Of a DNA stretch of 64,000 bases, positions 37,310-43,238 are shown one piece after another. Below the pieces are notes generated by a model. It was not told the origin of the DNA, did not search any database, and worked only from the letters and a program-made list of their open reading frames with translations. Origin of the DNA: a virus; the IMG/VR virus record IMGVR_UViG_3300019458_000191, positions 25,914 through 89,913 of that record. The stretch is one strand, 5' to 3'. Each line of letters starts with the position of its first letter. Positions within the stretch are counted from its first letter, which is position 1. The position numbers were made by a program, and so were the translations under genes.

Positions 37310-37861
37310 TTATACTAAGAAGGAATCTAAAGTGATTCCTTCGCTCTTTGGTTTATTTATATTTGCTTCAGACGGAATACAAAGAGATATATTGATGTTA
37401 AATTTTACAGTAAATGATGAAAGTTGTTTTTCTACAAATCGTTTTAGTTCTTCGGTATTCTCAGGGGGAGGGGTACTACCAGGAACAGGACCATAAGGGC
37501 CTCTTCGACCATTTTTACCACCTGGAAGAGGCATGGCTACGGATTTGATATCATTTTCCAATATCACCAATTTCATTGATTGAATACTTTGTTCTATCCA
37601 ATGGACGGTACTCCAATTTCTCCAATCGTCTTTTACTGCCAATCCAAGAAGATACATGCCGTCTGCATTTTTATACACATAACAAGTTCCTGGTTTAATT
37701 TCCTTTAAATGACATTTCTGTTTATAATCCGAAAACATTTCTGGATATCTCTTTTTAAATTCTAATGCTATTCCTGCACCCATTGCACCGACACAATTGA
37801 TGGTATTTACGTAGGCATCGGCCTTAATATTAAAAATGGAATCATCTAAAATCTTGAACAT
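37310..37861 (-). CDS. Macrodomain ADP-ribosylhydrolase (DarG/TARG1-like)
   Basis: Motifs VNTINCVGAMGAGIALEFKKRYP.MF..Y, K..WR..S and SVAMP..G..NG. Confidence 0.9.
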   Translation of the reverse strand: MFKILDDSIFNIKADAYVNTINCVGAMGAGIALEFKKRYPEMFSDYKQKCHLKEIKPGTCYVYKNADGMYLLGLAVKDDWRNWSTVHWIEQSIQSMKLVILENDIKSVAMPLPGGKNGRRGPYGPVPGSTPPPENTEELKRFVEKQLSSFTVKFNINISLCIPSEANINKPKSEGITLDSFLV

Positions 37862-37862
37862 A

Positions 37863-38114
37863 TCAATTCTCTATCCTTGGGATTACAACGTCTTCGGCCA
37901 TTCGTTGTGCTCTGGCTGCGATTTGTACTAATTCATGATACATTGATTTGTAATCTCTGAGTTTATTCTTTTTCTTGACTTCATCCCAAAGTTCATCCAC
38001 TTCTTCATTTAATAAACTAAATCCTTCGTGAGTAGAATGAACTTTTTCTGGATGTCTTTCACGTAGTTGTGAAAGCTTCTTCGTAACATCCTTTAAAAAA
38101 TTATCAGGCTTCAT
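37863..38114 (-). CDS. MazG-like NTP pyrophosphohydrolase
   Basis: HEG...L.EEVDELWDEVK...ELVQIAA.A. Confidence 0.75.
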   Translation of the reverse strand: MKPDNFLKDVTKKLSQLRERHPEKVHSTHEGFSLLNEEVDELWDEVKKKNKLRDYKSMYHELVQIAARAQRMAEDVVIPRIEN

Positions 38115-38150
38115 TCCTCAACGTATAACCTAATCGAAAAAATACACAGT

Positions 38151-38579
38151 TCAAGATTTTATAACTTCTTTAACAACGAAAGAGTCAGCACGTTCACCAC
38201 AATCGAACGATAAAGCCATAGGAATCAACCATCGAAGATTGGGCATGACATTGGAAGGAAGGAATTGAGTAGAATATATTCCAACAGTTTCATCCGTTGT
38301 TGTTGTTGGTTCTTCGGTAAGGAATCCAGAATAACAATAGACGTAATAGTTTTTATCATCATGTAATTGACAAAATAATTTCCAATTATTGAATGATATG
38401 TCAGTTTCTTCCTTAAATTCCCTCATCATTGCATCGATTGGAGACTCATTAAGTTCTATTTTTCCGCCAATACCATTTAACTTTCCTTTTTGCCAATCCG
38501 GCTTCTTCTTCTCTATCAAAGCCACCTGTAATCCTCCGGGCCATTTATAAAATCCAAATCCTAAAACGTAGGGTATCAT
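38151..38579 (-). CDS. NUDIX hydrolase
   Basis: Nudix box GGKIE..E....AM.REF.EET. Confidence 0.9.
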   Translation of the reverse strand: MIPYVLGFGFYKWPGGLQVALIEKKKPDWQKGKLNGIGGKIELNESPIDAMMREFKEETDISFNNWKLFCQLHDDKNYYVYCYSGFLTEEPTTTTDETVGIYSTQFLPSNVMPNLRWLIPMALSFDCGERADSFVVKEVIKS

Positions 38580-39859: not shown

Positions 39860-39860
39860 T

Positions 39861-40589
39861 TTAATATTCTTTTAATTTATCTGTAAAAACATTATATCTA
39901 AAAAATCTACAATTCATAATCCTTTTTATTTCTATCATTCTTTTTTCATCTTTTTCTTTTAATTTATTACTTGCATAATAGTGATGAGATTCATCATATT
40001 CCACTACAATATTTCTTTTTTTATCGTATCCATCTACATAATAACCTAATTGATTTACATAAAATTCTCCACCATTTAATGCGTGTTGTAACCTCCATCC
40101 TTTCTTTTTATTGAGTGTATCCAAATATTTACATCCTAGCTCATTAAATCGAAGAGATTGAATTCTGTATTTCTTTTTAATTCTATCTATCAAAGACTTC
40201 CTCATTTTTATTTTAGACTCTATACTATGTTTTCTTCCATAAAACGCATTATTTTTACCTTTATGTTTTCCCAAATTAATTATACTCAATTTCTCTTTTG
40301 TTTTCTGTGTGTGATGTTTTCCTAACATCGTAGGTATTCTTAATTTTGCAGAACATTTTTTACACAATTTTCTATTTCTTTTTCCTGAATTATAGCTGTT
40401 ATAATTTTTGTAGTAACTTTTTGTCTTACACCCACAACAAATTTTTAAAAATGGTCCTTTAGTTTTTTCTTTTAATAAAAGACATCGTTTACATATAGAT
40501 TTTTTTCTCACAGACCGGTTCAAAGATGATTTAGTTTTATATATTACAACTTTTTTACATTTTGGACAAGATTTCTTATTCTCGTTCAT
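39861..40589 (-). mobile_element. Free-standing homing endonuclease (Zn ribbons, NUMOD3, Vsr-like PD-(D/E)XK domain)
   Basis: CxxC pairs; GKHHT..TK.K.S and YGRKHS.ESK.KM; Y.VDGYD....VVEYDE..H. Confidence 0.82.
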
Positions 40590-40592
40590 AGT

Positions 40593-43238
40593 TTAAAATT
40601 CAAAAAAATTCTCAGCAGTCTTCATAGAACTATTGGGAAACTGCCATCTAAATACGTTATAGAAATCTATTAATTTACTCTTCAGTTCCTTTTCAAACAT
40701 TGCTGTTCTATCAATATTCTCGGTTATAAAATCCATCATCTTCTTTGGGTCATTTCCATCGGCCTTCATAGCAATAACATCTATACCGAAGGAGTTTTTC
40801 TTCAAATATACCCATTTTATCTTCTGTCCATGATGAATTGGTTCTACGGATTTATCCATCTCCCACTTATTTAATAAATCGTTGTAATAAATACACGCTT
40901 TTACTTGAGCTGGAGTACCTTTTATTATTTGAAACGGTTTTCTTGACTCTGGATTGTAATTGTGTTTACCATCCTGACTAACAAATTTCACCGATGTATT
41001 TTTTGCAATGGCAATAACGTCGATGTTCTTAATCGAATCCTTGAATGTCAAAATATCTTCGTCTAGTTTTTGTTGTGATACACCTTGTAAAAGATTTCTT
41101 AAAAATCCTTCCATGAATTTTCTAAATTCTGCCGGAAACGATGTTCTAACCACGTCAATACCCTTAACTTCTAACTCCGGCTCTTTTAATAAGGATCCTT
41201 CTTTGTGAATAATCCACTGAGCGTATCTCTTCTTTGCTAACCATACCGATGTTTTAGAAATAACTTCTTGTTTTGCATCAAACGTATGTTTATCCAAGTT
41301 AAAAAATCTCTTAGCCATTACATTATAGAATTGATTCACGAATAACTGAACTTCGGTAGTAACCGTCATGATAGCATCGGTCATCTTTGTATCATCATTA
41401 AAGTCTATGTCTGGAAAAATCTTTTTGATGATTGGTTTTGAATCCACGAAGCATGAATCGGTATCTGTATAAATAACCCAATCTCCGTTTTCGGTTTCTA
41501 AGGCTCTTTTATAATATTCATTAATGGCCTTGGCCGTCGTTTGAATAATAGATACACCCGTTGTAGTAACGGCTTCAGCATTATCTACATCATAGCATCG
41601 AAAGACAGGAAGACCTAACACACCATACAACGAATTAAGCAAAATCTTCCAAACTTGTTGTCTCTGATTATTAAAGAAATATCCTTCCATATCTCCCGAT
41701 TTCCTACAATCTGCAGCCACTTTTCTCATATCTTTTCTTTGTTGGAACCACTTACTAAGAATCTCCGGGATAACTCCACGTTTATCTTGTCTATATAGAA
41801 TTCCATTAGAACTAAGGGAATAGTTGGAATTTTTTACTAATTCACTAAAGTCTTGTGACTTATATTCGACTCCACCAACCTTATAAGATTCGTATTTGTT
41901 TCTGACCCACAAATCAATATCAAATTTACAAAGACCGGCTTCAATAAAATCAGGTAAAGGCACATCCGTATCGATTCTATTATATTCTTCTGTTAAGTTC
42001 TTTGTTCTTAACTTTTTACCTTCTTCAGTCAATTTCACGCCAGTAATTTTTCCAGCTTTTGTTTCCGGTGATATATTGAGGCTGATAAGAATATTGGGAT
42101 ACATGGAGGTTAAATCCAAATCAAATACCCAATCATATTTTCCTGGCACAGGTTCTTTTACGAATGCACCACTAAATCCTTCTTCTCCTTCTTCTAACTG
42201 TTCTTCATATTCTTCTCTTCCAGTAAGAGATTTATTTGGAGCAATAGTTCCTCCATTTCTTTTTAAGAACATTAGAATGGCCCCTTCAAGATATCTACTC
42301 GACATGCCGAAACTATCATAGGATACGTGTCCTACGTGACAAATACGACGAGCCAGGTCAATAAATTGAAGTTTTTTGTCCAGTGCAGCAACGATTCTAA
42401 CGTCATTCAAGTTATACTCAATAAATTTATTGATATCAGTTCTAAAAAGGTCGGTAAGATTACCTTTATATTGAATCTTATCCATTCCCACAACTTTTTT
42501 ACCGATTGGACCTAAAGCATAGGATGGTTCATTTTTTCCACTAAATTTCTTATATAATGTTAAATAATCCAAACACGATATACCAGCAACCACTAATAAT
42601 TTTTTATGTGGATTTACATAACATAATCCGACCGGAGAAAGACACTTGGCCGTCTTTGCATTAATACAATTTTTCATTCTAGTATAGAGATACGGCATAT
42701 CAAACCCATCAATGTTCCATCCCGTTACGATTGAAAAATTCCATTCATGCCATTTTTCTAAAAATGTCATTAACATAGTTTCTTCATCAGTAAATGAAGA
42801 AACAGTAACATCTTTCTGATTACTATTCTCAACTCGGCCAGATTCATCACACACAAATACATGATATTGATTCGTAGTACAATCTAATACTGCAATAGAC
42901 ACTATGGCCTTGTCAGCGACTTCCATGTTCGGAAATCCGCCTTCGATATCAATTTCGATATCGATTATACCGATTCTATGACCTGTAGATGGTTCATCTT
43001 CATCATACAAATCAACCAAAGTTCGAGTTTCTGGAGAAACATCGGATTCAAACAAATCTGTATCCTTGTCATCGTAATTGACAACTTTGGTTAATTCGTC
43101 ACCATAAATGGAACGATACCTTCCTCCAACTTGTTTCTTAAACGCATACTTCTGATATGGAAAGGTTTTCAATCCTTTCATATCATCCCACAAATATACT
43201 GTGGAAGTCCTTCTATCTATGTAGATGTTCTGATACAC
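40593..43238 (-). CDS. Family B DNA polymerase (gp43-like)
   Basis: Exonuclease motifs DIE, GWN..FD and YN..D; polymerase motifs DLTSMYP, K..LNS.YG, YTDTDS, KKRY and KG...R. Confidence 0.97.
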   Translation of the reverse strand: MYQNIYIDRRTSTVYLWDDMKGLKTFPYQKYAFKKQVGGRYRSIYGDELTKVVNYDDKDTDLFESDVSPETRTLVDLYDEDEPSTGHRIGIIDIEIDIEGGFPNMEVADKAIVSIAVLDCTTNQYHVFVCDESGRVENSNQKDVTVSSFTDEETMLMTFLEKWHEWNFSIVTGWNIDGFDMPYLYTRMKNCINAKTAKCLSPVGLCYVNPHKKLLVVAGISCLDYLTLYKKFSGKNEPSYALGPIGKKVVGMDKIQYKGNLTDLFRTDINKFIEYNLNDVRIVAALDKKLQFIDLARRICHVGHVSYDSFGMSSRYLEGAILMFLKRNGGTIAPNKSLTGREEYEEQLEEGEEGFSGAFVKEPVPGKYDWVFDLDLTSMYPNILISLNISPETKAGKITGVKLTEEGKKLRTKNLTEEYNRIDTDVPLPDFIEAGLCKFDIDLWVRNKYESYKVGGVEYKSQDFSELVKNSNYSLSSNGILYRQDKRGVIPEILSKWFQQRKDMRKVAADCRKSGDMEGYFFNNQRQQVWKILLNSLYGVLGLPVFRCYDVDNAEAVTTTGVSIIQTTAKAINEYYKRALETENGDWVIYTDTDSCFVDSKPIIKKIFPDIDFNDDTKMTDAIMTVTTEVQLFVNQFYNVMAKRFFNLDKHTFDAKQEVISKTSVWLAKKRYAQWIIHKEGSLLKEPELEVKGIDVVRTSFPAEFRKFMEGFLRNLLQGVSQQKLDEDILTFKDSIKNIDVIAIAKNTSVKFVSQDGKHNYNPESRKPFQIIKGTPAQVKACIYYNDLLNKWEMDKSVEPIHHGQKIKWVYLKKNSFGIDVIAMKADGNDPKKMMDFITENIDRTAMFEKELKSKLIDFYNVFRWQFPNSSMKTAENFFEF

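Follow-up and report, generated by a model that had tools for sequence, protein, structure and literature searches.

Why should a DNA polymerase, a predicted DNA-modifying enzyme and a predicted ADP-ribose eraser, encoded in one viral gene cluster with a sliding clamp, all end in short peptides that resemble each other? The question is raised by a 64,000-nucleotide stretch of viral DNA (the window; positions 25,914 to 89,913 of IMG/VR record IMGVR_UViG_3300019458_000191), in which a family B DNA polymerase (PolB), a Mom-family protein and a macrodomain protein carry such C-terminal tails. Analysis of the genes, of the fold of the clamp and of the tails in relatives showed that the tails are conserved, confined to particular protein families and like those of polymerases. 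From these results we consider it probable that the Mom and macrodomain tails dock on the clamp of the phage, and that nascent DNA is thereby protected while it is being copied.

In the mechanism that we propose, the PCNA-fold clamp would serve as a toolbelt. The gp43-type polymerase would dock on it through a C-terminal hydrophobic-acidic peptide, and Mom and the macrodomain would have acquired a peptide of the same kind at the end of a floppy C-terminal linker. The tails would concentrate both enzymes on clamps remaining on new DNA where, at or just behind the fork, Mom would modify adenines against restriction and the macrodomain would remove DarT2-type ADP-ribose from thymines. The genes and peptides concerned are these:

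40593..43238, minus strand: PolB of the T4/RB69 gp43 type, 881 residues (Pfam, PHROG and PDB matches)
40596..40619, minus strand: PolB C-terminal tail TAENFFEF (full end ...MKTAENFFEF), presumed clamp-binding epitope (sequence, relatives, T4 position)
39047..39859, minus strand: Mom-family (GNAT-like) predicted DNA adenine modifier, 270 residues (Pfam PF25680, phrog_1384)
39050..39073, minus strand: Mom C-terminal tail LSKQFFDY (full end ...ESLSKQFFDY) (sequence, homologues)
37310..37861, minus strand: DarG2/AdfM-type macrodomain, 183 residues (Pfam Macro, PDB, Foldseek)
37313..37336, minus strand: macrodomain C-terminal tail ITLDSFLV (full end ...EGITLDSFLV), with a 12-residue linker before it (alignment, model confidence)
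36506..37252, minus strand: sliding clamp of PCNA fold, distant gp45 relative, 248 residues (profile against PDB, AlphaFold2, Foldseek)
35294..36265, minus strand: RFC/gp44-like AAA+ clamp loader, 323 residues (phrog_168, Pfam AAA, DNA_pol3_delta2)
36242..36265, minus strand: loader N-terminal peptide MNDFFEDE (sequence)

An earlier note on this DNA, which had suggested clamp tethering, picked out the three tails and the start of the loader; all four peptides are present as it had claimed, on the minus strand.

The Polymerase, the Clamp and the Loader

PolB matched Pfam DNA_pol_B (E-value, E, 8.2e-32) and phrog_262 (E 1.5e-173), and its closest solved structures are RB69 gp43 chains (E 1.8e-74). 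Since the alignment to RB69 gp43 stops at residue 860 of 881, the last ~20 residues match the gp43 tail in position, and TAENFFEF occupies the same place as the T4 gp43 tail KASLDFLFG. T4 gp55, in turn, ends SPSLDFLYEAND. According to the passages of PMC2988020 that deal with these peptides, SLDFL[FY] of T4 gp43 and gp55 is a known clamp epitope, the clamp-binding C-termini of T4 interchange freely, the gp55 epitope is preceded by a divergent, change-tolerant linker, and the RB69 clamp has been crystallised with the 11 C-terminal residues of the polymerase (PDB 1b8h). By its position and by homology to the T4 and RB69 proteins, the polymerase tail would be expected to bind the clamp encoded here.

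For the 248-residue clamp itself, searches of Pfam and PHROG and a single-sequence search of the PDB gave no useful match. A tblastn search found one record, from a Microcystis phage, at 31% identity and annotated as hypothetical, and a first scan of viral contigs using the clamp alone confirmed no relative. Its relatives number 832 at E<=0.001, and a profile of 118 homologues matched the RB69 clamp (1b77/1b8h, E 3.3e-4) and T4 gp45 (1czd, E 0.024) in the PDB. The AlphaFold2 model has a predicted local distance difference test score (pLDDT) of 96.8 and a predicted template modelling score of 0.92, and the top 50 matches listed by Foldseek are PCNA chains (E ~1e-12, template modelling score, TM, ~0.7). 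Judged by profile and modelled structure, the protein is a PCNA-fold sliding clamp distantly related to gp45.

The loader starts 240 bp downstream of the clamp, with PolB in the same cluster, and related loci keep this order. It belongs to phrog_168, 'clamp loader of DNA polymerase' (E 5.6e-72), and also matched Pfam AAA and DNA_pol3_delta2. The DFFED-like peptide to which the earlier note had drawn attention is conserved in the closest clade, where 11/11 loaders start MDF[LVIM][VI]EE, and only there, the ~15-residue N-terminal extension being absent from 4/4 distant loaders with a complete N-terminus. This hydrophobic-acidic peptide could be a further clamp contact.

The Macrodomain and Its Tail

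The macrodomain matched Pfam Macro (E 1.8e-9). Among PDB entries, its best matches by sequence were DarG macrodomains (5m3i, E 2.8e-19; 5m31, E 5.9e-17), ahead of TARG1 (3e-4) and Poa1p (3e-3), and a Foldseek search with the model placed Mtb DarG 5m3i first (E 2.5e-15, TM 0.90) and Taq DarG 5m3e next. Residues N22 and K77, which are invariant in 100 homologues, align with N22 and K80 of Taq DarG2, named as its catalytic residues in a passage of PMC13309987. Over residues 4-96 the protein is 41.9% identical to PhiKZ gp104. These sequence and fold comparisons place it in the DarG2/AdfM type, its active-site Asn and Lys being retained, and the family call of the earlier note was right. A DarG antitoxin proper is ruled out, for only a linker and tail follow the fold of the 183-residue protein. 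No DarT-type Pfam match was found among the ten cluster proteins scanned. With neither a DarT-binding domain nor a DarT-type match in the cluster, we take the protein to be an orphan AdfM-like eraser. By analogy, it would strip DarT2-type ADP-ribose from thymine in DNA.

An alternative is that the macrodomain, together with the NUDIX hydrolase and HAD_SAK_2 protein encoded between it and Mom, acts in RNA repair or on soluble derivatives of ADP-ribose instead of on ADP-ribosylated DNA, and that its tail has an unrelated role. The HAD is of the 'Swiss Army Knife RNA repair' kind, the PHROG label of the macrodomain family is 'phosphatase', and a section of PMC7824862 proposes that ADP-ribose signals are degraded in jumbo phages by a Macro domain and then a Nudix enzyme. 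We nevertheless regard this alternative as unlikely. Gp104 is AdfM, which, as described in part of PMC13309987, removes DarT2 marks from DNA; the sequence and fold matches and the invariant catalytic pair point the same way; the macrodomain gene lies in a replication cluster and its product has a polymerase-like tail; and a NUDIX gene accompanies the macrodomain in only 1/15 of the related loci that hold one.

We examined the tail in the 120 best macrodomain homologues, nearly all of which end ...LCIP-DEAPKKP-x-x-TL[DE]xF[LIVAM] or in a variant of this (DLTQFLEV and NLSEFFTV are examples). After removal of 20 that were truncated or unusual in length, the remaining 100 were aligned: Phe occupies the F181 column in 98/100, Leu the L178 column in 86/100 and Thr the T177 column in 67/100, and a tail pattern falls within the last 9 residues in 90/100. 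The columns just before the tail have entropies of 2.4-3.0 bits and contain indels, and linker columns 170-173 are filled in only 7-19 of the 100 sequences. The macrodomain tail is thus well conserved although the linker before it varies. In the AlphaFold2 model pLDDT exceeds 90 to about residue 160 and then falls to 71, 58 and 62, with a short helix across L-D-S-F.

The Mom Enzyme and Its Tail

The 270-residue Mom protein matched PF25680 at E 3.6e-52 (177.4 bits, cut-off 27.1) through residues 5-207, covering profile positions 2-195 of 202, and phrog_1384 at E 9.2e-39; its assignment to the Mom family by the earlier note was therefore upheld. A total of 1997 homologues was found at E<=1e-5. 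By analogy with characterised homologues, it would modify adenine and so protect DNA against restriction. We surveyed the tail in the 120 best homologues, which are 63-81% identical to it. An aromatic pair lies within the last 7 residues in 52/120; these tailed homologues mostly extend 11-15 residues past a conserved K-N-V anchor, whereas the tail-less ones end 5-10 residues past it.

Two expectations of the earlier note can be judged on this evidence. It had placed both enzyme tails behind flexible linkers, which holds well for the macrodomain, with its drop in pLDDT and its linker indels, and less firmly for Mom, where the Pfam match runs to residue 207 and the tail lies on an appended extension. 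It had also held that a lack of conservation among orthologues would refute its idea, and on this count the idea was not refuted: the tails are conserved, with a nearly invariant Phe in the macrodomain, and have their motif in common with polymerases of related phages, although about half of the Mom homologues are tail-less.

A second Mom-family protein was found in a complete 365-kb relative (G006), 40 kb from the first Mom of that genome (L091:18423-19199; PF25680, E 9.5e-44). Its tail, ENQFFG, is identical to that of this first Mom, although the two proteins are similar only at E 4e-8. Aromatic tails occur in 46/80 loci of this second family (L111-L190), or 34/62 distinct proteins, in the form ENxFFG in the clade of the window and GFYE or RFYG elsewhere. 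The gene for this second Mom-family protein sits far from the replication cluster.

Tail Forms across Relatives

To compare the tails within their own genomes we used 80 viral loci around Mom homologues. In the syntenic close clade PolB ends FF[DE]F plus 0-2 residues in 13/13 cases and Mom ends xFFG in 15/15 (14 ENxFFG and one KHEFFG), while the macrodomains of the related loci end TL[DE]xF in 15/15. Distant PolB proteins end [ST]L[ED]x[FL]F in 11/12 cases, and the Mom proteins beside them end TLENFF, SLYKFFE, SLEEFFE or TLDNFLR, except that the ending is KHDFF at two loci and that a third locus has a Mom with no tail. From these ends it follows that the macrodomain motif is the polymerase motif of related clades and that Mom follows the local form of the polymerase. 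In the genome of the window, PolB and Mom share the form FF[DE][FY] and the macrodomain has the TLDxFL form of the related-clade PolB.

We then asked how often such ends arise by chance. The strict pattern [ST][LIM][DE]x[FWY][hydrophobic] in the last 9 residues, with the expectation taken from internal windows, occurred in 34/1478 open reading frames (ORFs) of the 80 loci and this genome together, against 1.0 expected. PolB, Mom and macrodomain proteins account for every one of the 34; given the kinship of the loci they amount to ~7-8 distinct tails per family. In G006 the strict pattern occurred in the macrodomain only (1/534 ORFs). The likeness of the tails is weak within this genome alone and rises far above chance only once the relatives are included.

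These counts bear on the explanation that the likeness is accidental, or that the tails share no receptor and are C-terminal signals of a general sort, such as a degron or a tag for solubility or virion targeting. Short aromatic tails are indeed common: FF in the last five residues was found in 7/534 ORFs of G006 against 4.3 expected, which is no enrichment, and in 2/129 of this genome against 1.14 expected, the two being exactly PolB and Mom. The many tail-less Mom proteins also fit such an explanation. It is hard to reconcile, on the other hand, with a strict pattern confined to three families, with a Phe kept almost throughout the macrodomains behind a variable linker, with two distantly similar Mom families bearing identical ENQFFG tails in one genome, or with tail forms that track the polymerase from clade to clade, and we consider it very improbable. 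Four of the seven FF-tailed ORFs of G006 encode PolB, Mom, the second Mom and an N6_N4 DNA methylase. We dropped loose aromatic tails genome-wide as an argument, a 'mid' pattern occurring in 31/534 ORFs of G006 against 26.6 expected.

Proposed Link of the Tails to the Clamp

If the Mom and macrodomain tails are clamp epitopes, as we propose, they would be expected to bind the site used by the polymerase tail. The clamp profile was found in 7/10 records with a tailed Mom and in 0/10 with a tail-less Mom; the three tailed-Mom records without a clamp are fragments 10-20% complete, and the tail-less set is 11-70% complete. One tail-less-Mom record holds a different PolB, which ends without the motif. 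The clamp lies beside Mom in some clades only.

A fold of the clamp with the tails had been put forward in the earlier note as a check. We folded three copies of the clamp, their number being supplied as input, with Mom residues 231-270. The runs scored 0.57, 0.59 and 0.59, against 0.00 in all 3 controls, among them runs in which an unrelated protein replaced the clamp; the outcome is classed as 'weak support'. The runs had at least 43% of contacts in common, and the pLDDT of the partner was at least 44. In calibration, the mark was reached by 58/80 solved complexes and 2/110 mismatched pairs, and scores of 0.60 or less within it included 7/80 of the solved complexes and both mismatches.

The marginal fold score also leaves room for a different receptor, namely that the tails dock on another replisome hub or on some phage or host protein (single-stranded DNA-binding protein, helicase or RNA polymerase) and that the polymerase uses this same hub. 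FF-type and TLDxFL-type tails do coexist in one genome, and T4 work, as set out in a passage of PMC2988020, allows that such peptides may have more than one site on gp45. Nevertheless, the polymerase is a homologue of gp43, whose C-terminus is a clamp epitope in both T4 and RB69; sigma factors of the gp55 family in related phages bear the motif; the clamp was found in 7/10 records with a tailed and 0/10 with a tail-less Mom; and the controls with the clamp replaced scored zero. Another receptor thus seems improbable to us.

Several observations weigh against docking of the Mom and macrodomain tails on the clamp. The co-occurrence of clamp and tail is confounded by phylogeny and synteny on fragmentary contigs. 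The Mom-tail fold differs in set-up from the calibration, and its pass may reflect memory of clamp-peptide complexes in the PDB. The aromatic tail is absent from 68/120 Mom homologues, and locus L041 has a clamp and a tailed PolB, yet a tail-less Mom. The PolB and Mom tails of the window (xxFF[DE][FY]) are without the Leu of the macrodomain TLDxFL, so that a single pocket for both flavours is an assumption; as given above, FF ends are not enriched in the genomes at large. The functions of Mom and the macrodomain are read from homologues. The experimentally proven AdfM of T4, Tk.4 (L271:6923-7390, minus strand), ends ...EIVIVDWEPLL right after its fold, with neither a linker nor an SLDFL-type tail. 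Finally, binding of T4 alpha-glucosyltransferase (alpha-GT) to gp45 was not reproduced in vitro or in in vivo pull-downs, in experiments that used C-terminally His-tagged enzymes, as described in part of bioRxiv 10.64898/2025.12.06.692756.

Comparison with Known Systems

The arrangement resembles the gp43, gp55 and gp33 epitopes of T4 and RB69 in that a short hydrophobic-acidic C-terminal peptide follows a divergent flexible linker, and in that the peptide is common to polymerase and non-polymerase clients of a phage-encoded clamp (trimeric in T4 and RB69), a sharing that is predicted here. The clients differ: instead of transcription factors, they would be counter-defence enzymes that modify or repair DNA. 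The earlier note had likened the tails to the T4 consensus (S/T)LDFL(F/L), and their anatomy is indeed the same, but the spacing is one residue off SLDFLF: the motif here is [ST]L[DE]xF[FL] or xFF[DE][FY], in which the Leu-to-Phe distance is one residue longer and equals the L-x-x-F-F core spacing of the PCNA-interacting peptide (PIP) box.

None of the three tails is a canonical PIP box, the motif that the earlier note had invoked. When they were compared with Q-x-x-[LIM]-x-x-[FY]-[FY], all three were found to lack the Gln expected six positions ahead of the first aromatic residue, and the motif, unlike a PIP box, is strictly C-terminal. The core h-x-x-a-a (L-x-x-F-F/L) is fitted by the macrodomain tail and by PolB tails of relatives. 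An aliphatic residue three before the aromatic pair is present fully in the relatives' PolB (L-E-R-F-F) and partly in the macrodomain (L-D-S-F-L), and absent in PolB (A-E-N-F-F) and Mom (S-K-Q-F-F) of the window.

Like AdfM (PhiKZ gp104, T4 Tk.4), the macrodomain is a phage protein of the DarG2 kind that stands alone and has the catalytic Asn and Lys. Parts of two papers describe AdfM as protecting phages and as clearing DarT2 ADP-ribose from their DNA (PMC13309987, PMC13716836). The AdfM of chimalliviruses reaches DNA by import into the phage nucleus, a route other than the one predicted here, and T4 Tk.4 differs from it in lacking the ~12-residue linker and the TLDSFLV tail. Mom resembles phage Mu Mom in its full-length match to PF25680. 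In the pertinent section of PMC7824862 the Mom family consists of GNAT-superfamily enzymes that acylate adenine N6 to evade restriction, and Mom domains of jumbo phages are typically fused to restriction-endonuclease-fold domains; the Mom described here is stand-alone, tailed and encoded in a replication cluster.

Eukaryotes offer a parallel on both sides. DNMT1 is a client of PCNA with a PIP box. Recruitment of PARG is PCNA-dependent, according to a passage of PMC10997334. The phage pair would likewise bring together on a clamp an enzyme that marks DNA and an ADP-ribose eraser of macrodomain fold, recruitment being predicted in this case. The system differs from PARG in belonging to a phage and in that the mark to be erased is predicted to lie on DNA, not protein. 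Within phages, the one earlier claim of modification by a clamp-riding enzyme, an in vitro claim that has it act concomitantly with replication, concerns T4 alpha-GT and gp45 and is recounted in the same part of bioRxiv 10.64898/2025.12.06.692756 that disputes it. The T4 enzyme ends ...KEQFDIITK, without an SLDFL-like tail, unlike the enzymes here. Because that precedent is disputed, a lineage whose enzymes bear a clear motif is a better test bed than T4.

The components (gp45-type epitopes, Mom and AdfM) are thus known singly. What appears from the sequences to be new is an eraser of the DarG2/AdfM type with a putative clamp-binding tail, and two Mom families that converge on one tail. Clamp tethering of phage Mom, methylases or hypermodification enzymes was not found in our literature searches, supplements being outside their scope, and the word 'clamp' occurs 0 times in either AdfM paper (PMC13309987, PMC13716836). 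If the tails bind the clamp, DNA modification and de-ADP-ribosylation would be coupled to replication by a simple, portable peptide, and viruses of prokaryotes would have a counterpart to the guidance of DNMT1 and PARG by PCNA. Such coupling would explain how nascent DNA is never exposed unmodified to restriction enzymes or DarT, and it would allow orphan phage genes that act on DNA to be predicted by a rule based on sequence.

Further Tailed Proteins in Relatives

In sequences of related phages the picture is wider than the earlier note had drawn it, with tails on the second Mom family, on DNA methylases and on gp55-like sigma factors. The sigma factors belong to the gp55 family of late factors (phrog_234, E 2.2e-60; L063:2132-2656, L057, L055:1328-1942) and carry LExFME near the C-terminus, resembling SLDFLYEAND of T4 gp55; Mom proteins in the loci that hold them end TLEAF[IL]. 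The tailed methylases are:

L095:8631-10883 (minus strand), L103:2646-3392, L041:1122-2021, L041:11304-12167 and L016:2334-3647: DNA methylases of related phages (PF02384/PF01555)

Their ends read LDLTDFM, NRFFS, NEFWG, GEFWK and TLERMLR. LDLTDFM belongs to a 750-residue N6 methylase of G006, and NEFWG and GEFWK to methylases that adjoin Mom and PolB in L041.

On a broader reading, the clamp would be the hub of a whole counter-defence suite, the peptide of the polymerase having been gained independently in this lineage by two Mom families, DNA methylases and an AdfM-type eraser. We hold this view tentatively and give it slightly less than an even chance. If it is true, the writing of protective marks and the erasing of hostile ones would both be replication-coupled, and the tethered eraser would imply that toxins of the DarT type attack at the fork and that the contest is decided by closeness to the clamp.

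One methylase was rejected as a tailed client: the NRFFS end of a 248-residue N6_N4 methylase occurs only in two identical copies among 80 homologues. Among 56 distinct homologues of this small methylase, three carry, within their final 12 residues, a loosely defined beta-clamp-like pattern (Q..[LM]F, Q.[LM].F or [LM][DST]LF), against ~0.16 expected, the numbers being small. These three tails read SQMTLF, TQLDLFEDIAE and QKDMFSEAA (L195, L229 and L231/L247-L249). A 396-residue protein (L067:662-1852) ends GNPFFDA and is possibly a further tailed DNA modifier; a TGT/DpdA-like label for it was dropped, as the Pfam match (E 0.0024) is below the cut-off and PHROG was negative.

The Gene Cluster and Its Surroundings

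The window is part of a viral contig of 89.9 kb with an estimated completeness of 26%. A second contig, of 340,916 bp, encodes a protein identical to the Mom of the window, and on this ground we assign the virus to the jumbo phages. A DNA similarity search of the cluster against a phage collection gave no match.

The genes form a tight co-directional cluster on the minus strand, from 43238 down to 35294, in the order PolB, NUMOD3 homing endonuclease, Mom, HAD_SAK_2, NUDIX, an 83-residue ORF, macrodomain, clamp, an 84-residue ORF and loader. That they form one operon, as the earlier note had stated, is plausible: the tight co-directional packing agrees with it, and no terminator-like site was found on the cluster strand in 34000..44800, but promoter-like sites (50, with 46.5 in shuffled sequences) are no commoner than chance would give. 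The remaining identified genes of the cluster are:

39861..40589, minus strand: homing-endonuclease-like insert between PolB and Mom, outside the proposed mechanism (Pfam NUMOD3, E 3.7e-7)
38576..39031, minus strand: HAD_SAK_2 phosphatase-like protein (Pfam PF18143, E 9.8e-22)
38151..38579, minus strand: NUDIX hydrolase (Pfam NUDIX, E 9.4e-9)

The gap between PolB and Mom, filled by the NUMOD3 gene in the window, holds different inserts in relatives. For the NUDIX and HAD_SAK_2 pair between Mom and the macrodomain (38151-39031, minus strand), ADP-ribose disposal or RNA repair is possible; the NUDIX neighbour, in particular, could dispose of ADP-ribose released by the macrodomain. A near-C-terminal 'DSFVV' in the NUDIX protein was rejected as a tail, as it is not kept in the single homologue found in the loci.

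Two observations concern genes outside the cluster. A 336-residue ORF upstream of the window ends TLIDELF and was negative in a Pfam scan. A small family, phrog_10928 (32136-32420 of the window, minus strand; L010:8945-9286), has a C-terminal peptide G-[DN]-x-x-[YF]-D-A-[GE]; the 9 copies from the loci all keep it, and so does the copy in the window, which ends GDRTYDAG.

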